A stretch of 23,076 bases of DNA from Promethearchaeota archaeon. Its GTDB lineage: Archaea; Asgardarchaeota; Lokiarchaeia; Sigyniarchaeales; SOKP01. The stretch lies in NCBI GenBank assembly GCA_016930515.1, contig JAFGGO010000125.1, forward strand, positions 1 to 23,076, written 5' to 3'. The first letter of the stretch is position 1. Every line of letters begins with the position of its first letter. Below the pieces are notes generated by a model, which was not told the origin of the DNA, did no database searches, and was given only the letters and a program-made list of their open reading frames with translations. Of the stretch, positions 3,447 to 15,654 are shown one piece after another. A program made the translations under genes and the position numbers.

Positions 3447-4226
3447 TTACCTAGCTATTTTGTTAGCAATCAATGCTGCAGAGGCTCCAGCACCAAATCC
3501 GTTGTCAATATTTACAACCAACAATCCGGGAGAACACGATTGAAGCATCGTAATCAACGCACCTTTTCCATTTGCTCCCATGCCATAACCGCTGGAGATA
3601 GGAACTCCAATGACGGGTATATCGACTAATGCCGCAACCACTCCTGGAAGCGTCCCCTCCATTCCAGCACATACAATAATCACATTTACATCTCTTTCGA
3701 CCATTTCCTTAAGAGGATTAAAAATTCGATGCATTCCCGCTATTCCAATGTCGTAGCTGGTGATAACTTCGCACCCCATTACTAATAAGATCTCTTTAGC
3801 TTCTTCGGCAACTGTAATGTCTGAACTACCTGCCGTTATGATTCCTACCAATCCGCCTTTTTTTTGAAATCCAAAACTCTTTTCTTTAATAACGAGTATT
3901 TTCGCCAATTCGTTTATGTGAACATCGTATTTATTATCAATTCTGTATACTTCGAGTAAACGCGATTTTTGGTCTTCTAAATAACGAGATACTATTGCAA
4001 ATTTTTTATTTTTTAAAAAAGAGTCGACAATCTTAGCTAGTATTGAATATTCCTTATTTTGAGCAAGAATTACCTCGGGGACGCCTGTCCTAGTTTTTCG
4101 AAACACATCTAACTTGGCAAGTTCTCCTACTTCCTCGATAAAATTAGCTTTCAGTAATTTACCTGCTTCTTCCACACATAATTCTTTTTTAAGCAATTTT
4201 TCGAGAATATCGTTTACATTGTCCAT
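3447..4226 (-). CDS. larB: Nickel-pincer cofactor biosynthesis protein LarB (NaAD carboxylase/hydrolase, PurE-like)
   Basis: Motifs AKLDVFRKTRTGVPEVI, TAGSSD, AEEA, DIGIAGMHR, AGMEGTLP, PVIGVPISSGYG and MLQSCSPGLLVVNIDNGFGA. Confidence 0.95.
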   Translation of the reverse strand: MDNVNDILEKLLKKELCVEEAGKLLKANFIEEVGELAKLDVFRKTRTGVPEVILAQNKEYSILAKIVDSFLKNKKFAIVSRYLEDQKSRLLEVYRIDNKYDVHINELAKILVIKEKSFGFQKKGGLVGIITAGSSDITVAEEAKEILLVMGCEVITSYDIGIAGMHRIFNPLKEMVERDVNVIIVCAGMEGTLPGVVAALVDIPVIGVPISSGYGMGANGKGALITMLQSCSPGLLVVNIDNGFGAGASAALIANKIAR

Positions 4227-4454: not shown

Positions 4455-5684
4455 GTGAACAATGTGAAAATAGATTACACATCGTATAAAGATGTTGATT
4501 TAAAAGGAAAAAAAGTCCTCATGCGCGTGGACATTAACTCTAATATTGATCTGGAAACAAACACTATCAGGGATTCTCCTCGAATTCGAGCGCTCGTACC
4601 TGCTCTTAACGAGTTAATAAACAGCGCTATTATCATATTAGCCCATCAATCAAGACCTGGTGATCCCGACTTTACTAATTTGGACATTCACGCCAAGGAA
4701 ATTGAAAACCAACTCGGTCGTCCAGTACAATTCGTGGAAGATATATATGGGAAAAAGGCAGTTACCGCTATTAAAAATTTAAAACCTGGAGAAGTGCTTG
4801 TACTCAATAATGTTAGAAAATTCGAAGGAGAAATGAAAAATTACAAGGATTTTGCAGAGGCTGAAAAAACCGATATGATACAGACTCTCTATCCCTTGGT
4901 AGATTATGTTATTGTTGACGCGTTTGGTGCGGCGCATCGAGCTCACGCGTCAATAGTCGGATGGCCTAAAATGATGGCTGGGCCAATTACTGCTCAAGAA
5001 TTATTTGCATTAAAGAAAATAATTGACGAACCCGATAAACCAATGGCCATGATCATTGGGGGCGCAAAAGCAATAGACAAGTTCAAGGCAATGAGATATA
5101 ATTTTGATAACGGAAAACTAGATTACGCTCTGTGTTCTGGACTGACTGCAATCTTAATTATGGAAGCAATGGGCATGAAATCGGGAGAGCCGAATAGAAA
5201 GCTGATTGCCAAGGATTTAGAAGAAAACAAGAATTTAATCGTGGATACCTACCAAAAATATGAGGCCAAAATAGTGCTTCCTGTTGATTTTGCGATTAAC
5301 GATAAAGGATATAGGAAAATAATACCCTTTGTCGAAGCAGAAGAAGCAGCCTCCACGACGGGTGATGTTGGTCCAGAAACAGTCGAAACCTTTAAAAGAA
5401 TCATTATGAAGTGCAGGACTATTGTTGCGAACGGGCCTCCTGGTATTTTCGAAGAGGAAGTCTTTAGGGAGTCCACAAACGAGCTTGTTGAAATAATGGT
5501 AGAGGCCACGCAAAAAAATGGAGCTCTTTCGATCATTGGAGGTGGAGAAATGGGCGCGGCGGCTTCAATGGCTGGTTTAGCTGATAAGGTTTCATTCATC
5601 TCCACCGCTGGTGGAGCAATGCTCGAAATACTTTCGGGAAACGACCTTCCGATGATAAAAGCTCTAAGAGAAAAGAAATATTAA
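4455..5684 (+). CDS. pgk: Phosphoglycerate kinase, archaeal type
   Basis: Motifs KKVLMRVDINS, AHQSRPG, LNNVR, DAFGAAHRAHASIVG, IGGAK, NGPPGIFE, IGGGEM and ISTAGGA. Confidence 0.96.
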   Translation: MNNVKIDYTSYKDVDLKGKKVLMRVDINSNIDLETNTIRDSPRIRALVPALNELINSAIIILAHQSRPGDPDFTNLDIHAKEIENQLGRPVQFVEDIYGKKAVTAIKNLKPGEVLVLNNVRKFEGEMKNYKDFAEAEKTDMIQTLYPLVDYVIVDAFGAAHRAHASIVGWPKMMAGPITAQELFALKKIIDEPDKPMAMIIGGAKAIDKFKAMRYNFDNGKLDYALCSGLTAILIMEAMGMKSGEPNRKLIAKDLEENKNLIVDTYQKYEAKIVLPVDFAINDKGYRKIIPFVEAEEAASTTGDVGPETVETFKRIIMKCRTIVANGPPGIFEEEVFRESTNELVEIMVEATQKNGALSIIGGGEMGAAASMAGLADKVSFISTAGGAMLEILSGNDLPMIKALREKKY

Positions 5685-5832: not shown

Positions 5833-5905
5833 GAGCCCATGGTCTAGTGGTTATGACGTCCGCTTGACGTGCGGAAGGTCGGGAGTTCAATCCTCCCTGG
5901 GCTCA
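5833..5905 (+). tRNA. tRNA-Val(GAC), intronless, CCA not encoded
   Basis: Acceptor stem GAGCCCA/TGGGCTC plus discriminator A; D arm GTCT-AGTGGTTA-TGAC; anticodon stem TCCGC/GCGGA with loop TT-GAC-GT (anticodon 5866-5868); T arm GGGAG-TTCAATC-CTCCC. Confidence 0.97.
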
Positions 5906-6113: not shown

Positions 6114-6135
6114 CATAATGCTTAAATAACTTTCA
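6114..6135 (+). promoter_or_regulatory. Putative BRE/TATA promoter of module 1 (CATAATGCTTAAATAACTTTCA)
   Basis: TTAAATA TATA-like box about 50 nt upstream of the 6176 CDS; near-identical to the element at 11502-11522. Confidence 0.6.
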
Positions 6136-6175
6136 TTGTTATTTTAACTTAATTTTTTAAAAATAGGAAATTTGA

Positions 6176-6739
6176 TTGAAAATGGAAAAAAAAAAATTAT
6201 ATTCAATAGCCGCAGTCGTAATCGTTGCTGCAATTCTCGTCCCTTCTATAATTGTTGCTGTCGTTCTTTTAACTCCTGCCGCAGTAGATCCCTGTGCTGG
6301 CGAAGAAGATATTTTATTATTTACAGGAAATGGATTAAAAAACAACTATACATATAGTGTGTGTGATTTACAAAAATCCACATACCAACAATATACAAAT
6401 GTAAATTTGAGTTATACAACAAAGGTAGAAACTACATATGCAATAGTCTCTGGAGTATCTCTTTGGGATTTTATAAATAAAAATCATATTTTAAAAACAG
6501 GTATAGATTCCGACACTACAAATGTGACCTTTGCTGCTTCAGGCTACACCATTACTTTGAATCTTACGACGGTTCAAACTTATCCCGCCGACATCATTAT
6601 AGTATATGGTGGAGATGATTTTGATCCTATCGTAGATGGACCTTTAAGATCTGCAGTCTCCAATAATGTTCTTGGTTTGCCTACAAGAACTAGTAAATAT
6701 TGGGTTTCGAACTTAGAAAACATCACCATATCTGTCTAA
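6176..6739 (+). CDS. Membrane-anchored extracytoplasmic protein with a sulfite-oxidase-like molybdopterin-binding domain, lacking the Mo-ligating Cys
   Basis: N-terminal basic patch plus TM helix; SGVSLWDFI, VTFAASGY, IIIVYGG and DGPLRSAV...SKYWVSNLENITI match the Oxidored_molyb pattern; several N-x-S/T sequons. Start TTG 6176 or ATG 6182. Confidence 0.7.
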   Translation: MKMEKKKLYSIAAVVIVAAILVPSIIVAVVLLTPAAVDPCAGEEDILLFTGNGLKNNYTYSVCDLQKSTYQQYTNVNLSYTTKVETTYAIVSGVSLWDFINKNHILKTGIDSDTTNVTFAASGYTITLNLTTVQTYPADIIIVYGGDDFDPIVDGPLRSAVSNNVLGLPTRTSKYWVSNLENITISV

Positions 6740-6750
6740 TTTTAAAAACC

Positions 6751-6762
6751 TTTTTTTTTTTT
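6751..6762 (+). terminator. Oligo-T tract, possible archaeal intrinsic terminator or attenuator inside module 1
   Basis: Run of 12 T beginning 12 nt after the 6739 stop codon. Confidence 0.4.
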
Positions 6763-6787
6763 AATTTTCATTATATATTTTATCACG

Positions 6788-7963
6788 ATGAAACGCAAGG
6801 ATTTAATTATTGGAATAGTATTAGTTGCTGCATCGATATCTGCGGGAATCATCGGTTATGCCGTTGTAGTGCTCTTAACTCAAGATAATACGGAAGATGT
6901 TTTCATACCTGGCTTGCCCGACGATTTTGAAGGTGCTCCTATCGGGGCAAATATAATTATCAGCAATGGTACTGACACTATGACAATATCTTTTGGCGAT
7001 ATCTTAGAGGGTGTAGAGTTATGGATGGAACAAGAAGTCACGGGCTTACAAATAAACGAGGAAAAGGATATCGTGGCATTACATGCTTATGACGATAAAG
7101 AAATTGGAAAAAGAATAACGGGCGTGGATATATTAGATATCCTTGAGATGTCTGGTATGAATTTTGCGTGGAACCTTGTTTTTAGCTCTACAAACGATGG
7201 AGAAACCAAAGCGCTTTCAAGAACAACAGGAAACATAATAGATGACGCAGCAGGGAGCTATCGACCGACTTTTATTGCCTTAGCAATTAATAAGAAATGG
7301 ATAAAGGACACTGCATATGCTGGGGAATGGGGGAACTTCACGGTTGTAGGTCGAAATCTCTCTGAAAAATTGTTTGACCTCCAGCAGATTAATATTATGT
7401 CTGAATGGAATGTAGATATTATCATAAACGGTGTAAAAAGTCCGTTTTCTATAAATACAACAAACATGTGGTATAATGCCGTTTGCCATAATTATTCCTA
7501 TTATCGAAGCGATTATTGGAACTTTAACAGGTCTTATATTGGAAGAACTATAGACGATATAGTAAAAAATGCCACTTATGGGATGGGTTTTACCGATTGG
7601 AATGTTAGTTTTGCCTGTGCCGATGGACTCGTTGATCCAAACCCTCCCTATAATAAATCTGAGATCGAAAACGGAATGGCAAACGATGGTTCTCTCACCA
7701 TACCCCGAAACAACGATGATAAAGTGAATATTACTGGCGGAGGTACTGGCGTTGGACTACCAATAACGAACCAAAAAATGGTATTGGTGTTTCGGTTAAT
7801 GCAATACGTCGAGGGTAACGCTGCTACGAATTCTTGGGATCCTGCTTGGGAGAATTATCATTATTGTGGGTATAGGCATGGGCCTTTTACCATTTATGTT
7901 CCGGGACGGACGAGATCGAACTTTCCAAAATATATCACGCAAATTATAATTGAGGCTTCCTAA
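6788..7963 (+). CDS. Membrane-anchored extracytoplasmic protein with two tandem, diverged sulfite-oxidase-like (molybdopterin-binding) domains
   Basis: N-terminal TM helix. Domain 1: ITGVDILDILE...LVFSSTNDG...IALAINKK...WGNFTVVG...LQQINI. Domain 2: YIGRTIDDIV...VSFACADG...MVLVF...HGPFTIYVPGRTRSNFPKYITQIII. About ten sequons. Confidence 0.6.
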   Translation: MKRKDLIIGIVLVAASISAGIIGYAVVVLLTQDNTEDVFIPGLPDDFEGAPIGANIIISNGTDTMTISFGDILEGVELWMEQEVTGLQINEEKDIVALHAYDDKEIGKRITGVDILDILEMSGMNFAWNLVFSSTNDGETKALSRTTGNIIDDAAGSYRPTFIALAINKKWIKDTAYAGEWGNFTVVGRNLSEKLFDLQQINIMSEWNVDIIINGVKSPFSINTTNMWYNAVCHNYSYYRSDYWNFNRSYIGRTIDDIVKNATYGMGFTDWNVSFACADGLVDPNPPYNKSEIENGMANDGSLTIPRNNDDKVNITGGGTGVGLPITNQKMVLVFRLMQYVEGNAATNSWDPAWENYHYCGYRHGPFTIYVPGRTRSNFPKYITQIIIEAS

Positions 7964-7966
7964 TTC

Positions 7967-8824
7967 ATGGAACTCAAAAAAAAAGCCCCATTTTTTTTTT
8001 TAATTATTTCCTTTTTTTTATTTTCGGGTATTATTACTAAACAAGCTATTGCATATCCCGGTTGGGAAGGAGATTGCGAGGCCCATCACGGAATTGGATC
8101 GGTTATCTCTAATTACGACGCTTCGGCACGGATCGTGCTTGATGGGCAATCTGACGAGAAATTCTGGTTAACCTATTCTAACAACAAGGCGTTCATTCCG
8201 TTGGCAACGGATATAACTAAGTCCGGAGGGTTTAACGTCACGCTCAACCTGACTTTTGTTCACAATAACAATTACTTATATATTTTATGCGAGTGGGAAG
8301 ATAACACTACCGTTCCTGCTGGATTTAATTACGATGGCTTGTTTTTTTGCTGGAACATTGATGTTCCTAATTTTACCGCAGATTTTTTAAGCGATATGAG
8401 CACCGATCACATGGGTAGTGGTAACATCGATTCTTGGAATTGGATCTACGACGATGATTTTGCCCTGGATAAGTGCTTCGGAGAAAAAGGATGGTTCGAT
8501 TCGAGCCTTGAAGCTCAAGACATTGAAGTGGCGTATTCCCTCGTTGAAAACGAATCTTATACCTTAGAAATACGAAGAGCGCTCACGACGGGCGATCAAC
8601 ATGATGTTAAATTCGATAAAACCGGGCTCTACGAGTTCAACCTTGCAATATTAAACGATGGAAGGCACGAAAACCACGCAATTTCGTGGACATACGCGTT
8701 GAACTTAAAGTTGCCTGCAAACGAGTTTCCAGTAGTAGTTGTTATAGTTATTGCGATTGTTAGCATCGCTGGAGTGGTTGTTGTCATTGGTGTGGTTTCT
8801 TATAGGAAAAAAAGAAGAAATTAA
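7967..8824 (+). CDS. Secreted, C-terminally anchored DOMON-like (ethylbenzene dehydrogenase gamma-type) putative heme-binding protein
   Basis: Signal peptide; IVLDGQSDEKFW, YLYILCEWED, M...GNIDSWNW, YTLEIRRALTTGD.HDVKF and FNLAILNDG..ENHAIS fit a DOMON/EB_dh pattern with candidate Met and His ligands; C-terminal TM helix plus RKKRR tail. Confidence 0.7.
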   Translation: MELKKKAPFFFLIISFFLFSGIITKQAIAYPGWEGDCEAHHGIGSVISNYDASARIVLDGQSDEKFWLTYSNNKAFIPLATDITKSGGFNVTLNLTFVHNNNYLYILCEWEDNTTVPAGFNYDGLFFCWNIDVPNFTADFLSDMSTDHMGSGNIDSWNWIYDDDFALDKCFGEKGWFDSSLEAQDIEVAYSLVENESYTLEIRRALTTGDQHDVKFDKTGLYEFNLAILNDGRHENHAISWTYALNLKLPANEFPVVVVIVIAIVSIAGVVVVIGVVSYRKKRRN

Positions 8825-8885
8825 AATAGATTTAAATCTGATATTAATCATATTAAATGATAAATAGAGTTTATTTCAAGACATC

Positions 8886-9512
8886 ATGAACGAAATTGAG
8901 AAGAAGGAAAACTTAACAGAAGAACAAGAAGACTTCGTTCCGACGGGCTTAGGTATTGATTCTCACAATAAGTTAAACAATCTCGACTTCATCTACTGCA
9001 TGATCATTGGTGTCATAGGGGGAATCATATCTAGCTTGGTTCCCTTTTCGTTACTCATTAAAGTCTGGTATCCGCTCACGGGAGGCACTCAACTCGTCAG
9101 CGGCCACCACCTAATTTGGGGGGCGCTCATATACGGGCTAACTAAGAAGAAAAAAACGATTTTAATTACAATGACGGCAAAAGGACTCCTGGAGTTTTTA
9201 TTTAACGATCCATGGGGGCTTATCATCGTGTTCGTAAACATACTCGAAGCTTCGTTCTTAGCGTTAGGCTTTATTCTCGTTGAACGGTTCCAAGAAGGAG
9301 ACAGTCGACTTGGTTGGGCCGTGGCAGGTGGTATCGGAAATTTCGTTCAAGCTCCCTTTTTTTGGATATTGAATCAGCGATTTTACTTGAATTGGATATT
9401 ATGGGTATTAGCGTTTACATTCGCAATTATATCAGGCATGTTAATCGTCGGAATCTTGGGAAGGGCTCTTAAAAATAGTCTTATCAAGTCAGGCGTTCCC
9501 ACTATTTTTTGA
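8886..9512 (+). CDS. ECF transporter substrate-binding S component, YkoE-like (paralog 1)
   Basis: About 200 aa with roughly 6 TM helices; DFIY.MI.GV.GGI, KGLLEFLFNDPWG and GGIGN; its paralog at 12223 is adjacent to ECF ATPase and T genes. Confidence 0.75.
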   Translation: MNEIEKKENLTEEQEDFVPTGLGIDSHNKLNNLDFIYCMIIGVIGGIISSLVPFSLLIKVWYPLTGGTQLVSGHHLIWGALIYGLTKKKKTILITMTAKGLLEFLFNDPWGLIIVFVNILEASFLALGFILVERFQEGDSRLGWAVAGGIGNFVQAPFFWILNQRFYLNWILWVLAFTFAIISGMLIVGILGRALKNSLIKSGVPTIF

Positions 9513-9576
9513 TATGAGAAATTCATCAATACAAATTAACAATAAAAAAAATACTATAAAAATTCTTTAATTAGCT

Positions 9577-10905
9577 TTAGTTCAGTCCTTTTTTCTCTTT
9601 TATTTTTTCAATGAGAATGTTAACGATTTCCCTGTCAGAGAGTAAGCCTTCGGGAGCGTCTTTTACCTTGCGCAACATTATAGGGATGTTATCCATGCGA
9701 TATGCCGTACCCTCGCATTCTACGCCGCATATCTTTACGGGAAAGACGATATCCGCGTATGCGGATGTGGGGGTCTCGTGAGGCTCTACCGAAATCATTG
9801 GATGTTTTAAAAGATTCTCTACTGCCGCAGCAGGTAAATTAAGCACGGGATCTGTTGCAATGATGAAGGAGACATCTATTTCGTTGCGAATAAGGCATGG
9901 TACCGTCGAAAATTCACCCATGTTATAACGTGGAAATCCTCGCGAAAAATCAATAGCGAGAGGGTATCCCGTATTCCACGAAAAGACGATGTTCGATCCT
10001 GCCACATTGTAATGCCCCCTCATTGGTTGGATGACAAATTTAGTGTAATCGTTTAGTTCTCTCGTCAAGCAGATTGCTGTGTCTACGTTTCTATGGTGTC
10101 CTTCCGAGTGTGTTAGACCCAATCCAAAGAATATAACTCCGAAATTAGCGCTTTTTAATCTTTCAACGAGCTTTTTCATGTCTTCTATGGGAACACCGGC
10201 CACTTGCTTGGCGTCTAATTCAACCCCTCGAAGCATTGCTCGAAGGGCGTTAAACAACTCGTAATCCTCGCTTGGATTTACTTGAATGTGCAGGTCCGCA
10301 ACTTGAGCCGTGTGCGTTTTTCGTGGGTCGACAACGATCATGTATCTATCGTTGCGGCCGTTTTTTGTAAAGCTTCCACGAATGAAGCTACTATATCGTC
10401 CCAAATGGCGAGGATGAGCGTGAATTGGGTTGCAGCCCCAGAATATCACCAAATCTGCTCGATTTCTATATTCTCCAAGAGTAGAACTGGGTATGCCCAC
10501 GTCCTGAACCGCCAGAAGGCTTGGCCCGTGGCAAATGGAAGAGCAATTATCGAGAATTCCGCCCGTGATTTCTGCCAGCTCTACGCCCCTGCTGATGGCT
10601 TCAGCTTCCGTGCTAGACCATCCATACAACAAGGGTCTTTTAGCTTTTGCTAACAAATCTGCAGTTTTATCCAAGGCTTCCTCCCAGGTTACCTCCACGA
10701 GCTTACCATTTTTTCTAATCATGGGTTTTTTATATCGATGGGCATTGCTTTCGTTCGAAGCGAAATAAATTTGCGTTCCAATTTGGCAAGCGTTTCTAAC
10801 TTCCACGACTTCGTTATTTACTATGTCCACTTCCAAGTCATCGCATAAGCTCCCGCAAAATGGGCAAACAACATCGGTTTTGGTTTGAATTTTTCCTTGA
10901 ACCAC
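9577..10905 (-). CDS. fwdB: Formylmethanofuran dehydrogenase subunit B (Mo/W-bis-pterin catalytic subunit), Cys form
   Basis: CPFCGSLCDD...C Fe-S motif, DNCSSICHGPS metal-ligand motif, NRADLVIFWGCNPIHAHPRH, MRGHYNV and GTAYRMDNIP. Start revised to GTG 10905, preceded by AGGAGG directly after the fwdD stop. Confidence 0.95.
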   Translation of the reverse strand: MVQGKIQTKTDVVCPFCGSLCDDLEVDIVNNEVVEVRNACQIGTQIYFASNESNAHRYKKPMIRKNGKLVEVTWEEALDKTADLLAKAKRPLLYGWSSTEAEAISRGVELAEITGGILDNCSSICHGPSLLAVQDVGIPSSTLGEYRNRADLVIFWGCNPIHAHPRHLGRYSSFIRGSFTKNGRNDRYMIVVDPRKTHTAQVADLHIQVNPSEDYELFNALRAMLRGVELDAKQVAGVPIEDMKKLVERLKSANFGVIFFGLGLTHSEGHHRNVDTAICLTRELNDYTKFVIQPMRGHYNVAGSNIVFSWNTGYPLAIDFSRGFPRYNMGEFSTVPCLIRNEIDVSFIIATDPVLNLPAAAVENLLKHPMISVEPHETPTSAYADIVFPVKICGVECEGTAYRMDNIPIMLRKVKDAPEGLLSDREIVNILIEKIKEKKGLN

Positions 10906-10918
10906 TTTTTTTCTCCTC

Positions 10919-11323
10919 CTATATTTGTTGTTCCACCTTGTATTTTTTGACAACTTCTAGGGAATCCAACACTTTTCCGTTTTGTACTACTTCAAGCTTG
11001 GCTTTTAATCCCTTGTATCCTGGAGTACCCATTCCGTCTGTAATGGGGCTAACAATTTGGTTTGCCCAAGGTCCTGCGGGAATGAAGATCACACCTGGAT
11101 GTGGCCCTTCTTCTGTAATTCTCGAGTAGACCAATACCTCACCGTGATCGGTAGTCACGCGAACTGGTGTCCCTGGAATGCAATCAAGTTTGATAAAGTC
11201 ATCCCTATCTATCATACATACCGCTGCTGCTCGAACATAATTTCTCTTAGTCTTTCCCGATTCTAAAGCAATACCTTGATCAATATTTTGACCCGTTATG
11301 AGTATTAGATTGTCCAATCTCAA
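10919..11323 (-). CDS. fwdD: Formylmethanofuran dehydrogenase subunit D (molybdopterin dinucleotide-binding)
   Basis: Motifs LITGQNIDQG..LESGK, V.VTTDHGEV, GVIFIPAGPWAN and TDGMGTPGYKG; TTG start with AGGAG upstream; directly upstream of fwdB. Confidence 0.92.
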   Translation of the reverse strand: MRLDNLILITGQNIDQGIALESGKTKRNYVRAAAVCMIDRDDFIKLDCIPGTPVRVTTDHGEVLVYSRITEEGPHPGVIFIPAGPWANQIVSPITDGMGTPGYKGLKAKLEVVQNGKVLDSLEVVKKYKVEQQI

Positions 11324-11418
11324 TTTTATGACTCCTATCCGTTTAGTAATGAGATATTTGTTTTTCTAATGATCTGAAAAAAAAATATTTTAGTTTGAGC
11401 TGATAAAGGCTAAAAAGA

Positions 11419-11522
11419 ATATAAAACTTGCGGTTATGTCCGTTAGTACACAACGCTCAGGTAATGCCATTATCACTTGATGGGCGATGCGAACAGCCGT
11501 ACATAACGCTTAAATAATTTCA
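11419..11522. promoter_or_regulatory. Divergent promoter region for fwdDB (- strand) and module 2 (+ strand)
   Basis: The - strand reads ACATAACCGC-AAG-TTTTATA (11440 down to about 11420). The + strand reads ACATAACGC-TTAAATA (11501-11516). A palindrome TATCA-CT-TGAT lies centrally at 11471-11481. Confidence 0.55.
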
Positions 11523-11668
11523 ATTATTTACTTGAATAATATTAAAAAATAAATTAGTTACTACGAGAAATCGAGAGCTAATTCCCACTATATGGCGCAC
11601 ATCAAAATCAAGTTGCTAATTGAGAAAATAGGTTAATTAAATAATCTTAAAACATTATAAATCTAAAA

Positions 11669-12226
11669 ATGAATCGTAGGAACTTTTACATCTTAATCTT
11701 TTGCATAATTTTTGGTAATTTCGTGTTTTGGATAAATGTATATGCGTTCGTACTATTTGATGTAGATTTATTCCAAGTAAACAACGGTACCATAGTTATC
11801 AAAGGAGAGGGTGTGAAAAACGAATTCAGGATCTCCCTGACCGAGCTAAAATCTGAGGAATACCTTCAAATCGTCGACAAAGAATTTAACTTTCTAAATT
11901 CGGTCGGTAATCAATACTCCGAGATCTATTCAGGAGTCTCTTTAGGAAGTCTTTTACAGGTAAAAGACATGCTACTCGAAGACCCTGCGGAGCTCACTTT
12001 TCGTTTTTATTCTTTAGATGGATATGTGAGCCCAATGGCACTTAATTTGTCTTTAGCAACGACTTATATGGAAGACGTGATTTTAGCATACGAGTTAGAC
12101 GGATCGTCGATGGATCAATATACAGGACCAGTTAGGTCGGTAATTAATAGAAATGTAATCCCAGATCTAGCAAATTCTCAATATGCCGTAAAGCAACTGA
12201 ACCAGATTTTAATTGAGATCGTATGA
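11669..12226 (+). CDS. Membrane-anchored sulfite-oxidase-like molybdopterin-binding domain protein, lacking the catalytic Cys
   Basis: N-terminal TM helix; ISLTELK, YSGVSLGSLL, FYSLDGY, VILAYELDG and GPVRSVI...SQYAVKQLNQILI; homologous to 6176..6739. Confidence 0.75.
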   Translation: MNRRNFYILIFCIIFGNFVFWINVYAFVLFDVDLFQVNNGTIVIKGEGVKNEFRISLTELKSEEYLQIVDKEFNFLNSVGNQYSEIYSGVSLGSLLQVKDMLLEDPAELTFRFYSLDGYVSPMALNLSLATTYMEDVILAYELDGSSMDQYTGPVRSVINRNVIPDLANSQYAVKQLNQILIEIV

Positions 12227-12945
12227 GTGGTGGGAAAATAATTAGTTCTGATATTATTCTCGTTAATGACTTTTTAACAACTATACGAGGCAAATATATA
12301 TTGACGGAAGCAACATCAATCCCTTCCATTTTAGATAACCCCGAAGAAGTCGAAGAAGTTCAAGAATACGAAGCAACGGGACTTGGAACGGACGATTCGA
12401 AACGATTGACGAATTTGGATTTTATTTATGCGATGATTTTTGGAGTGTTAGGTGGAATTATATCCAGTTTAGTGCCATTCAGCCTACTAATTAAAGTGTG
12501 GTACCCTTTCGTTGGTGGAGCTCAATTTGTTAGTGCCCATCACGTGATATGGGGGGCACTTGTTTATGGACTTACAAAAAAGAAAAATAACATAATGCTT
12601 GTGATGTCTGTTAAAGGAATATTAGAATTCTTGTTTAACGATCCTTGGGGCGTACTCATCATCTTTGTAAATCTATTTGAAGGGGCCTTCTTGGTATTAG
12701 GATTTATATTGGCGGAAAAATTTAAGGAAGGAGACACTCGTCTTGGTTGGGTCGTAGCAGGAGGGTTCGGAAATTTCTTTCAAGCGCCATTTTTCTGGCT
12801 CTTAAACCAGAGATTTTACCTTCATTGGGTTTTATGGGTCATTACCTTCTCATTTGCAATCATTTCTGGAATGTTGATAATTGGTATCATGGCCAGATCT
12901 CTAACGAATAACCTCATCAAGGCTGGAGTTCCAACAACATTTTGA
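12223..12945 (+). CDS. ECF transporter S component, YkoE-like (paralog 2); alternative start TTG 12301
   Basis: Aligns without gaps to 8886..9512 over the core (about 70% identity counted by eye); directly upstream of ECF ATPase and T genes. ATG 12223 overlaps the previous stop (ATGA), while TTG 12301 has GAGG upstream and matches the paralog's length. Confidence 0.8.
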   Translation: MSGGKIISSDIILVNDFLTTIRGKYILTEATSIPSILDNPEEVEEVQEYEATGLGTDDSKRLTNLDFIYAMIFGVLGGIISSLVPFSLLIKVWYPFVGGAQFVSAHHVIWGALVYGLTKKKNNIMLVMSVKGILEFLFNDPWGVLIIFVNLFEGAFLVLGFILAEKFKEGDTRLGWVVAGGFGNFFQAPFFWLLNQRFYLHWVLWVITFSFAIISGMLIIGIMARSLTNNLIKAGVPTTF

Positions 12946-12991: not shown

Positions 12992-14764
12992 GTGAATAAC
13001 TTCTCGTTTATTTATGGTGATGATAAAAATGCCATCCCTGTAGTTTCAGATGTTTCCTTCAAGGTTCACGAAGGAGAAACCTTAGTCATAGCGGGACCGA
13101 GTGGAAGCGGGAAATCAACCATTAGTTATGCCTTAAATGGGGCAATACCGTGGAGAATAAAAGGTTTTGCTAAAGGACAGGTTGAGATAATGCAAAAAAA
13201 CGCAAAAGAGTACAAATTCTTCGAACTATCTAAGCTAGTTGGATTGGTGTCTCAAAATCCCTTGGATCAATTGGTTACGTTTAATGTCTACGACGAAATC
13301 GCTTTTGGACTCGAAAACTTGCTCGTACCAAAAATACAAATTGAGTCTGAAATCGAGGAAATTGCTCAATTTATGGGCATTCATCACTTGCTTGAAAGAG
13401 AGATCGACCAGCTCAGCGGAGGTCAAATGCAACTGGTACTTCTAAGTTCGTTTCTCGTAATGAAGCCTCGAATTCTCATTTTAGACGAGCCCATGGCGTA
13501 CTTGGACCAAAAATCGGAAAGCTTACTATTGGAAAAGTTAAAATTACTGAAGAATTCTAAAAACTTTAACTTAACCTTAATAATTATCGAACATAGACTT
13601 TCTAGAGTGCTTGATCTTACTGATAAGATCCTCGTTTTAGATGTAAATGGTAAAGTAGCTCTTAAGGGGAAAAAGAAAGATGTTATAGGTTATAATTACG
13701 ATCAATTACGTCAATGTAACCTTAGAATACCCTGGATGTTAGAATTATTAAACGATCTAAAAGAAAATATCCCTATATTTCAATTAACCCAAGAACCAAT
13801 TAAATATAACTCTCTTTTAGAACAATTAAATTTCCTCAATCAAGAAGAACTAATGCTCATTCGCAATTATTTATATAATACGATCATAAATCCTCTTGAA
13901 TTTCAAAAATACGATTCTTACGAAAAAGAAATTCAATTTCAAGAGCTTTACATTAAATCGTTGAAAAATAAGTGCCTACGAAAAAATATAACACCAACTA
14001 AATCTTTTCAAGAACCTAATGATGTCATTTTAGATATAAGAAACTTGTTCTTCCAATACCCAAACTCAAGTGTCCTTGCGATAAATGGCCTGTCTTTCAC
14101 TGTTGAAAGAGGTGATTTTATCGGTCTTGTTGGACCGAATGGGGCTGGAAAAACTACCCTATTGTATGTATTAGCGAATCTATACAAGCCCACTTCTGGA
14201 GAAATATATTACAAGGGAAATAACTTGGCAAACATCGATTCATTCAAGTTTTCAAAAGATGTGGGATTTATATTTCAAAATCCCGAAAACATGATCTTTA
14301 AGAATACAATACAAAGCGAGCTATTGTATGGCCCAGAAAACTTTAACATTCTTGAAGATATAACGGAAGAATACATACAAAAATTAATGCTTTTAATAGG
14401 CGAAAAAGACGAAAATAAAAATCCGTTTAATTTAAGCTGGGGACAAAAACGAAGGTTAAATCTTAGCTCCGTGTTTATTTACGATCCCGAAATAATCTTA
14501 CTTGATGAGCCTTTTATCGGGCAAGACCAAAGAACGATAGATTTTCTCATTGAAACGCTTTACATAGAAAACAAGCGTGGAAAAACCATCATCATATCTT
14601 CACACGACTACCAATTGCTCCTCAAATACACGAAAAAAATCATGGAACTAAACAAGGACGGTTCGTTGAGAACCTATGAAAACAAAGAAGCTTATTTTAA
14701 AAAACACAAAAATTTGGGACCAATACAATTATTAGAAAAATTAAATTCCTTGATTAAAGAATAG
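12992..14764 (+). CDS. ECF transporter ATPase with two fused ABC domains (YkoD-like); the true start is probably slightly upstream
   Basis: Domain 1: GPSGSGKST, QNP, LSGGQ, ILDEP, IIEH. Domain 2: GPNGAGKTT, FQNPE, LSWGQKRR, LLDEPFIGQD, SSHD. Confidence 0.92.
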   Translation: MNNFSFIYGDDKNAIPVVSDVSFKVHEGETLVIAGPSGSGKSTISYALNGAIPWRIKGFAKGQVEIMQKNAKEYKFFELSKLVGLVSQNPLDQLVTFNVYDEIAFGLENLLVPKIQIESEIEEIAQFMGIHHLLEREIDQLSGGQMQLVLLSSFLVMKPRILILDEPMAYLDQKSESLLLEKLKLLKNSKNFNLTLIIIEHRLSRVLDLTDKILVLDVNGKVALKGKKKDVIGYNYDQLRQCNLRIPWMLELLNDLKENIPIFQLTQEPIKYNSLLEQLNFLNQEELMLIRNYLYNTIINPLEFQKYDSYEKEIQFQELYIKSLKNKCLRKNITPTKSFQEPNDVILDIRNLFFQYPNSSVLAINGLSFTVERGDFIGLVGPNGAGKTTLLYVLANLYKPTSGEIYYKGNNLANIDSFKFSKDVGFIFQNPENMIFKNTIQSELLYGPENFNILEDITEEYIQKLMLLIGEKDENKNPFNLSWGQKRRLNLSSVFIYDPEIILLDEPFIGQDQRTIDFLIETLYIENKRGKTIIISSHDYQLLLKYTKKIMELNKDGSLRTYENKEAYFKKHKNLGPIQLLEKLNSLIKE

Positions 14765-14775
14765 AGAGATGTCAA

Positions 14776-15654
14776 GTGGGAAAGAATAAAGTTGAAAATC
14801 TGGACAAGAAAAAGCTAATATTCGCTTATTATCCTGGAAATTCTTTCATGCACGGATTAAACCCTCTTTCTAAGTTATTTTTTCTTATTATCTTAACTTT
14901 TATCGTATTTATTATAAGGAGTCTTATCTTACTGAGTGTTATCTCGCTTCTAATAATCTTTACCGCACTAGGCTCAGGTATTTCGCTTAAAAATTTAGCA
15001 CATAAACTGAAATTCATGGTTATACTCATAGTTTTTAGCGTCATTATTAACATTTTCTTCAATGCCAGTTATATAAATGGCGAAATATTGTTCTACTTGT
15101 TTGGTCTTGATTTTCTGCCCATTCGACGTCTGGCATTATATTATTCGTTAAGAGTATTCTTTAGCGTGTTGTCTCTTTATACATCCACCATCATTTATAC
15201 GAGCACCACGCACATGAAGCATTTCGTTTATGCCTTGATGAAACTCAAAATTCCTTATACATTTTGCTTTCATTTTATGGTCGGGATTCGATACATACCG
15301 ATGATTGAAAAAGAGGTAAAAACAATCGCTTTGGCTCAAAAAGCCCGTGGATCAAGATTAGAAAAAGTAAATAGTGTGAAAAAGGCTTATAATTTCATAT
15401 TTGATCGTTTAAATTCCGCATTAGTATCCATATTGAGAAAGGGATATACTACGTCTCTTTCCATGGAAAATCGCTGCTTCGGTATTTATAAGACGAGAAC
15501 GAACATTACTGAAATCAGATTTAGGTCTCGGGATTTTTTTTTCGTATTAATTTCGTTAATTTTATTTGTTTTTCTTTTGCTATATAACCTAATTGCACTC
15601 CCCATACCTCAAGTTCCTTCGCTATATCAAATTTTTGTTGATTTTTTAAGCTAG
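14776..15654 (+). CDS. ecfT: ECF transporter transmembrane T component
   Basis: SFMHGLNPLSKL, IRYIPMI, AQKARG and SMENRCF coupling-helix motifs; multiple TM helices. Confidence 0.92.
   Translation: MGKNKVENLDKKKLIFAYYPGNSFMHGLNPLSKLFFLIILTFIVFIIRSLILLSVISLLIIFTALGSGISLKNLAHKLKFMVILIVFSVIINIFFNASYINGEILFYLFGLDFLPIRRLALYYSLRVFFSVLSLYTSTIIYTSTTHMKHFVYALMKLKIPYTFCFHFMVGIRYIPMIEKEVKTIALAQKARGSRLEKVNSVKKAYNFIFDRLNSALVSILRKGYTTSLSMENRCFGIYKTRTNITEIRFRSRDFFFVLISLILFVFLLLYNLIALPIPQVPSLYQIFVDFLS

Follow-up and report, generated by a model that had tools for sequence, protein, structure and literature searches.

Cysteine-less sulfite-oxidase-like domains encoded in a conserved energy-coupling factor transporter operon of Asgard archaea

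A 23,076-nucleotide stretch of DNA (hereafter the window) from a Promethearchaeota archaeon (contig JAFGGO010000125.1) encodes three surface proteins that together contain four domains with the fold of the sulfite oxidase (SUOX) family of molybdenum enzymes, all of which lack the Mo-ligating cysteine. The source is a metagenome-assembled genome (MAG) of 4.0 Mb and 94% completeness, and close homologues of the window proteins carry the names Promethearchaeota, Hodarchaeota or Lokiarchaeia archaeon. The three proteins are referred to here by the start positions of their genes: the small protein A, 6176 (6176-6739, + strand, 187 residues); the two-domain protein, 6788 (6788-7963, +, 391 residues); and the small protein B, 11669 (11669-12226, +, 185 residues). 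A preliminary description of this DNA had recognized the domains but missed their context, as the SUOX-like genes are the first genes of a conserved operon for an energy-coupling factor (ECF) transporter. This six-gene SUOX-like/ECF operon is newly described here. We consider that the four domains are probably non-catalytic descendants of the SUOX fold and serve as dedicated extracytoplasmic subunits of a group-I ECF importer, and we infer that they capture a small ligand and hand it over to the S component.

Fold, cofactor hairpin and export of the four domains

The preliminary description had named four sulfite-oxidase-like domains, and the peptide segments that it quoted were all found in the genes concerned. 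Fold and homology tests agreed with this count and identified 11669 and 6176 as whole proteins of this type, along with both halves of 6788. The 11669 sequence matched Pfam PF00174 (Oxidored_molyb) with 25.7 bits (cut-off 24). Its AlphaFold2 model, which had a predicted local distance difference test score (pLDDT) of 82 and a predicted template modelling score (pTM) of 0.73, was matched by Foldseek to SorA sulfite dehydrogenase and chicken sulfite oxidase (E 4e-8 to 1e-6) and to the PruR structures 7kom, 7kos, 7rkb and 7kp2 (E 1e-6 to 1e-5), with template modelling scores of 0.64-0.67 when normalised to PruR. The 6176 protein is a paralogue of 11669 (27% identity, E 7e-14) and scored 236 bits against the family profile. 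In the AlphaFold2 model of 6788 (pLDDT 78), the N-domain (residues ~49-207; nt 6932-7408, +) could be superposed on PruR with a root mean square deviation of 2.2 Å over 118 residues (VIA Z 13.1), and comparison with sulfite oxidase and SoxC gave VIA Z values of 12.5-13.7, the highest of which belonged to SoxC.

The C-terminal half of 6788 (from residue ~205/208 to 391; nt 7409-7960, +) was masked by the first domain in the structure search and was therefore tested by profile comparison. A domain profile of 310 domain copies, taken from the hits of the exhaustive search described below, was compared separately with the two halves of the alignment of the 6788 family. The hhalign probability was 96% (E 1.5e-9) for the N-domain and 98% (E 9e-13) for the C-domain, which was covered over its whole length. 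A first hhalign run between two family alignments was weak (probability 19%), and significance was reached solely with the 310-copy profile. The secondary-structure elements of the C-domain follow one another as in the 11669 model, apart from a single insertion around residues 296-331, and the Atlas evidence for this domain was weak (PF00174 in 11% of one cluster). Searches of the PDB with single sequences and with one family-alignment profile returned noise only, and a 52-member family profile reached both SorA (E 1e-6) and PruR 7kom (E 5e-6) by sequence. From the fold matches, the paralogy and the hhalign results, we conclude that all four domains are real and share the fold of SUOX enzymes. 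Within 6788, the two domains differ in their family motifs; the C-domain retains ADG and GPF...PGR...KY..I, and the N-domain has neither the tyrosine of DGY nor GPxR.

In SUOX-family enzymes, a conserved Cys on a hairpin ligates Mo. We found that this hairpin is without Cys in all four domains, as the preliminary description had stated. In 11669, the hairpin spans residues 67-88 (nt 11867-11932, +), and the sole Cys of the protein, C12, lies within the membrane helix. The other cysteines, which had been put forward as possible substitutes, were checked one by one, and none of them appears from the alignments to occupy the hairpin tip. In 6176, C40 is located in the linker, and C63 aligns to T58 of 11669 at a position where Cys occurs 3 times in 274. 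In 6788, C233 opens the first hairpin strand and was found in 1 of 10 orthologues, C277 was found in 2 of 10, and C360, five residues ahead of the GP motif, was found in 6 of 10; the replacement of C360 by H, V or L in the remaining four orthologues argues against an essential ligand. Across the family, hairpin columns 70-86 contained no Cys in 304 of 318 domain copies (80/81 from single-domain, 78/79 from mid-size and 146/158 from giant proteins), and columns 75-81 held one Cys among about 290 residues per column.

The hairpin is also shortened. The alignment with SorA skips the block that bears the Mo-ligating Cys, and the segment between the aligned blocks counts 17 residues in this family versus 32 in SorA. 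The PruR structures show the same truncation of the Cys-bearing hairpin (PMC11194511). The Trp that replaces the Cys in PruR aligns to F75 of 11669, a column that is variable across the family (Y, L, F, S, I), and the hairpin tip of 11669 is N77-S-V-G-N81. The preliminary description had also suggested Ser ligation (NSVG, RSDY), which we could not support because the tip column is not conserved; it varies family-wide and in close orthologues, reading S, S, S, A, R, A and K in the seven closest sequences.

At the N-terminus of all three SUOX-like proteins, a basic segment precedes some 25 hydrophobic residues, an arrangement that places the domains outside the cell behind an N-terminal signal anchor, as had been described. 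The accompanying statement that twin-arginine signals are lacking needs a qualification: 11669 begins with MNRRNFYILI (11669-11700, +) and thus has an RR pair, but this pair is not conserved, since its orthologues read SRN, KRN or TRN at this position. The anchor helix itself is conserved among the 11669 orthologues (RNFYILI...FW...YAF). TatC and TatA of the twin-arginine translocation (Tat) pathway were not found in the organism's own genome, and a search for TatC across 41 genomes of the order (this one and 40 relatives, three of them single-contig) was negative throughout, whereas the control genomes were positive. The Tat export that is typical of extracytoplasmic SUOX enzymes is thus missing from the searched genomes, from which we conclude that the proteins are exported by Sec, unfolded and without cofactor, a route that is incompatible with pre-loaded molybdenum cofactor (Moco). 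The earlier proposal of unfolded, cofactor-free export therefore gains a footing in these genomes. The N-glycosylation sequons noted before were likewise confirmed, as N-x-S/T occurred about twice as often as expected in three of four surface proteins (5 vs 2.3, 10 vs 4.1 and 5 vs 2.4).

An exhaustive search of 1.84 billion proteins yielded 209 family representatives at E <=1e-3 and 98 at E <=1e-10. Their database names include "hypothetical protein", "molybdopterin-dependent oxidoreductase" and "YedYZ catalytic subunit"; the molybdoenzyme label is almost certainly wrong for this SUOX-like family. We also observed giant bacterial surface proteins of up to 2800 residues (P0030, P0124, P0077 and others) with five to eight Cys-less SUOX-like repeats, which additionally carry SLH anchors, Reg_prop propeller repeats and CARDB domains. 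Some of these are named YedYZ catalytic subunits in databases.

Linkage to an ECF transporter and predicted docking

In the window, the operon is split and duplicated. Module 1 consists of the small protein A, the two-domain protein, an EB_dh/DOMON-like surface protein (7967-8824, +; 285 residues with an N-terminal signal peptide and a C-terminal membrane anchor) and the ECF S component 1 (8886-9512, +; 208 residues, YkoE-like, PF09819 with 28.2 bits). Module 2 consists of the small protein B, the S component 2 (12223-12945, +; 240 residues), a fused EcfA-A' ATPase (12992-14764, +; 590 residues, two ABC_tran domains, TIGR04521 with 336.8 bits at a cut-off of 330) and the EcfT component (14776-15654, +; 292 residues, PF02361 CbiQ with 93.8 bits). 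The two S components share 72% identity, and the stop of the 11669 gene overlaps the start of S component 2, its predicted partner, by 4 nt. PF09819 matched seven of eight members of the S component 2 family, whose profile reached YkoE (5edl) with an E value of 0.038. At its N-terminus, S component 2 is about 32 residues longer than its paralogue at 8886, and its true start could lie further downstream. An S component, an EcfT and two EcfA domains are thus encoded together, as in group-I ECF transporters, and the gene order is kept in relatives. The genome holds three EcfT genes, one of which is 14776, and this ECF module is therefore a dedicated one.

The family profile matched 24 of 41 related genomes of the order. 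When the window proteins were compared by tblastn with the loci fetched from relatives, the recurrent gene order was two-domain SUOX-like protein, EB_dh/DOMON-like protein, small SUOX-like protein, S component (PF09819), fused EcfA-A' and EcfT. An independent profile search for the S component gave a strong match (>=264 bits) in 19 genomes, and in all 19 a SUOX-like gene lay immediately upstream on the same strand. Genomes without a SUOX-like gene were generally without the S component too, and the exceptions were weak, non-adjacent matches. The two-domain protein has orthologues in both Promethearchaeota and Hodarchaeota MAGs. In a second family of the order, the operon ATPase is 853-874 residues long and is followed by no separate EcfT open reading frame (L024:6036-8597, -; L025:5903-8527, -), which suggests an EcfA-A'-T fusion.

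The EB_dh/DOMON-like protein is conserved in the operon of relatives and was absent from that of at least one (G018). Its Pfam matches to EB_dh (23.8 bits) and DOMON (22.2 bits) were both under the cut-offs; PF09459 was carried by 26 of its 30 Atlas neighbours, and a weak match to NxrC (7b04_C) was found. EB_dh proteins are normally heme b carriers, the gamma subunits of periplasmic Mo enzymes. Right after the signal peptide of the 7967 protein, we observed a GDCxxHH motif (residues 35-42), in which H41 is invariant and Cys is present in four of five aligned relatives; the C-terminal anchor ends in a basic tail. With such a partner, a redox or tetrapyrrole function is conceivable. The G032 gene that takes the place of the DOMON gene (L025:9950-10828, -) is divergent and has an NDGY-type motif; it may encode another SUOX-like protein rather than an EB_dh homologue.

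We then examined the pair formed by the small SUOX-like protein and the S component by controlled complex prediction, in which the alignment of the S component was paired with that of the small SUOX-like protein. The ipSAE values were 0.73, 0.75 and 0.73, compared with 0.01 for the best control; 58 of 80 solved complexes attained this mark, as did 2 of 110 mismatched pairs. At least 95% of the contacts agreed between runs, and the partner pLDDT was at least 88. In the predicted complex, the anchor helix (residues 4-34) runs along the transmembrane helices TM5/TM6 of the S component (174, 203-214), and the outside domain contacts loops 88-97, 141-145 and 194-201, the first of which is the invariant WYP..GG.Q region. 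On the SUOX side, the contacts come from the former cofactor cleft, made up of the hairpin tip (77-83), D117-G-Y119 and neighbouring residues (115-122), Y151, A168 and Q171. The predicted topology fits the positive-inside rules for both proteins. We know of no similar complex, so it is unlikely that the prediction reproduces a known structure. The small SUOX-like protein is thus predicted to dock on the S component via the former cofactor cleft.

Conservation across the family is highest in columns G46, N77, G80, G89, D117-G118-Y119, A140-Y141, G153-P154-x-R156, N169 and Y172/W173. These columns are kept in single-anchored proteins, in tandem proteins and in the giant bacterial SLH-anchored proteins with five to eight copies, and their retention in all architectures argues for a partner-independent ligand site. 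In the profile alignment, N102, Y104 and W160 of PruR correspond to D117, Y119 and Y172/W173 of 11669, which are among the best-conserved columns. These PruR residues sandwich and hydrogen-bond neopterin (PMC11194511), and the N-to-D change has a counterpart in groups C and D of PruR (PMC13259868). Given the retained stacking and hydrogen-bonding residues and the precedent of PruR, our guess is that the ligand of the cleft may be a pterin-like heterocycle.

Possible functions and neighbouring genes

Taken together, the gene linkage and the predicted docking make non-catalytic capture or accessory subunits likelier than molybdenum enzymes, and it is very unlikely that the SUOX-like proteins bind Moco or catalyze redox reactions. 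The preliminary description had offered binding proteins as one of its readings, and a non-catalytic binding or partner role is indeed the best supported, with PruR as a solved precedent. We propose that the SUOX-like proteins would be exported by Sec and held on the outer side of the cell membrane by their N-terminal anchors, where they and the anchored EB_dh/DOMON-like protein would serve the ECF importer composed of the YkoE-like S component, EcfA-A' and EcfT. In ECF S components, the outer loops L1, L3 and L5 gate the substrate site. The anchor helix of the small protein would pack on TM5/TM6 of the S component, and the shortened cleft (N77-Y83, D117-G-Y119, Y151 and Q171) would cap these loops. 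From the cleft, a bound small ligand could then move to the S component, with ATP driving its import.

Several observations weigh against this capture model. The interface buries the cleft on the S-component loops in the prediction, and the cleft may therefore be a protein-protein surface only. The calibration of the complex prediction is approximate, and small author-made alignments were used. Judging from profile matches, the S component is only distantly related to any characterized one; YkoE is a thiamine-binding S component. The domain also occurs five to eight times in the giant proteins, which have no ECF partner, and this occurrence would agree equally well with a generic binding or adhesion module. 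The N-domain of 6788 has lost both DGY and GPxR. Furthermore, the genome contains Moco synthesis genes (MoaC, MoaE and two MoeA) and encodes an MptA-type GTP cyclohydrolase as well as Pterin_bind proteins, so an auxotrophy for pterins or Moco is not apparent; a search of the genome for FolE-type cyclohydrolase I was negative. An argument for salvage from auxotrophy was accordingly rejected.

In a more specific and more tentative version, which we hold to be possible but doubtful, an ECF importer of Asgard archaea would have drawn dedicated capture subunits from two folds associated with molybdoenzymes, namely that of the SUOX Moco domain and that of the EB_dh heme b gamma subunit. Outside the cell, they would bind a heterocyclic cofactor, of the pterin type or another, and hand it over to the S component via the former Moco cleft.

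The same docking can also be read without any small ligand. The SUOX-like proteins might be obligatory structural or gating subunits of the S component, as CbiN is for CbiM, with the cleft acting as a protein interface that shapes or opens the S site. The strict gene linkage, a predicted interface made up of cleft residues (77-83, 115-122, 151, 168, 171) and the anchor helix, and the CbiN/NikN precedent (PMC2667541) are in line with this explanation, but D-G-Y, GPxR and N77 are also kept in the absence of an S component, namely in the tandem and the giant SLH-anchored proteins, and we regard it as unlikely.

The conserved EB_dh-family protein, which belongs to a family that normally carries heme b, and its GDCxxHH motif with an invariant His after the signal peptide raise the question of a surface redox module. 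Such a module would work with the EB_dh/DOMON-like protein as heme b carrier and reduce or oxidize a substrate, such as an oxidized pterin or a metal chelate, before uptake, as an analogue of MsrP-MsrQ or DOMON-cytochrome reductases that is cofactor-less or differently cofactored. This seems improbable, as the operon encodes no electron input module, the EB_dh gene is missing from the G018 operon at least, and the domains have no Mo ligand.

Two genes for formylmethanofuran dehydrogenase subunits, fwdB (9577-10953, -; TIGR03129 with 600 bits) and fwdD (10919-11323, -), sit between the two modules, and the pair (9577-11323, -) stands without other fwd subunits nearby. Since the SUOX fold ancestrally binds molybdopterin, capture and import of an Mo/W-pterin cofactor for these adjacent genes might be imagined. 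However, among the five same-genus genomes searched, the operon was found in L004 alone, where fwdB adjoins it, and in all the other relatives the DOMON gene stands directly before the small SUOX-like gene. We interpret the fwdDB pair as a genus-specific insertion into the duplicated, split operon and not as a part of the system, and a functional link was rejected because it is not conserved in relatives. Moreover, the genome has its own MoaC, MoaE and two MoeA, and the hairpin and cleft are shortened like those of PruR, a protein that cannot hold Moco (PMC11194511). This explanation is therefore very improbable.

We give slightly less credence still to PruR-like sensors that would signal ligand binding to a membrane regulator instead of feeding a transporter. 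PruR is the closest solved small relative, and a PAS histidine kinase is encoded downstream of the operon in one relative (L024), but no DcpA- or DTB-type partner is encoded and this kinase neighbour is not conserved, the constant neighbour being the ECF S component. Finally, active Mo/W enzymes with another ligand, namely Ser (as at the 11669 hairpin tip, NSVG), Asp or C360 of 6788 (present near the GP loop in six of ten orthologues), are scarcely credible given the variable tip column, the short hairpin, the replacement of C360 in the other four orthologues and the absence of a detectable Tat pathway that could export a cofactor-loaded protein.

If the predicted docking on the S component is true, the idea drawn from PruR, in which a Moco fold is reused for ligand binding, would extend from bacterial signalling to archaeal transport. 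ECF importers are the textbook 'binding-protein-independent' transporters, and they would gain a substrate-capture partner that is absent from the accepted mechanism. Asgard archaea are the closest archaeal kin of eukaryotes, and the frequent but patchy occurrence of the system (24 of 41 genomes) may mark a cofactor that is exchanged in a syntrophic lifestyle. The soluble SUOX-like domains are small (~150 residues), contain few cysteines or none and lend themselves well to experiments.

The rest of the window was also inspected. Upstream of module 1 are genes for LarC (54-1340, +) and a LarB-like protein of the AIR carboxylase family (3447-4226, -), which we take to act in nickel-pincer cofactor synthesis; a TPR protein and a protein without an assigned family are encoded between them. 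These are followed by PGK (4455-5684) and, between pgk and module 1, by tRNA-Val (GAC) (5833-5905, +). The proximity of LarC and LarB was rejected as meaningful, since neither had a match in the operon contexts of the six relatives checked. The flanks in these six relatives encode coiled-coil proteins, a PAS kinase, PAP2, ribosomal proteins, a methyltransferase and a radical SAM protein, and no common theme was found in them. Additionally, an AT-rich motif of about 25 nt (GCTTAAATAAyTT.CA.T..TTATTT) occurs at 6120-6144 and 11508-11532 (+), some 30-160 nt ahead of the two small SUOX-like genes, and may serve both as a promoter or operator; since the pattern itself was built from these two sites, the match count is not independent. 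A riboswitch search of the window found none.

Comparison with known systems

We compared the SUOX-like proteins with the SUOX enzymes (sulfite oxidase, SorA/SorT, SoxC and YedY/MsrP; PF00174). The fold and homology are shared, and (W/Y)xGVxL, DG(Y), GPxR and K..I are retained. In contrast, three defining features of these enzymes, the Cys, the long hairpin and Tat export, are absent here, and the proteins have neither the dimerisation domain nor the heme domain.

Two further systems resemble the present one at the level of the transporter. CbiN, NikN and NikK/NikL are extra extracytoplasmic or membrane-anchored components of ECF metal importers (PMC2667541). As with the SUOX-like proteins, their genes lie within a dedicated ECF operon, and they are small proteins that the transporter needs besides its S, T and A components; the likeness is one of role, and no relation of sequence or fold is expected. 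The CbiN and NikN systems use CbiM/NikM S components and transport metal ions, whereas the S component here belongs to PF09819 (YkoE-like). YkoEDC (YkoE, PDB 5edl) shares this Pfam family and the architecture of a dedicated module, but the relationship is distant, as the profile E value given above indicates, and YkoE is not known to have such an extracytoplasmic partner. We found no description in the literature of a SUOX-like protein linked to an ECF transporter.

The comparison with PruR (PDB 7kos, 7kom, 7kp2 and 7rkb; PMC11194511, PMC13259868) revealed both likenesses and differences. PruR is a soluble protein of Proteobacteria, whereas the proteins described here are archaeal (Promethearchaeota/Lokiarchaeia) and membrane-anchored. 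The PW motif of PruR is not present, the tip reading N-S-x-G and the aligned column F or Y. In place of the two-gene operon with a DcpA/DTB regulator, an ECF S component lies downstream in all 19 genomes with a strong match, and, unlike PruR, the family also occurs in two-domain, tandem and multi-copy forms. The small proteins nevertheless share with PruR a stand-alone extracytoplasmic SUOX-fold domain with no Mo-ligating Cys and a truncated hairpin, and residues that align with its stacking Tyr, C-terminal aromatic residue and Asn/Asp are present. PruR also works through a membrane-protein partner that is encoded next door. By analogy, the domains described here appear to work most like PruR, as a Cys-less SUOX fold that would bind a ligand and act on a neighbouring membrane protein.

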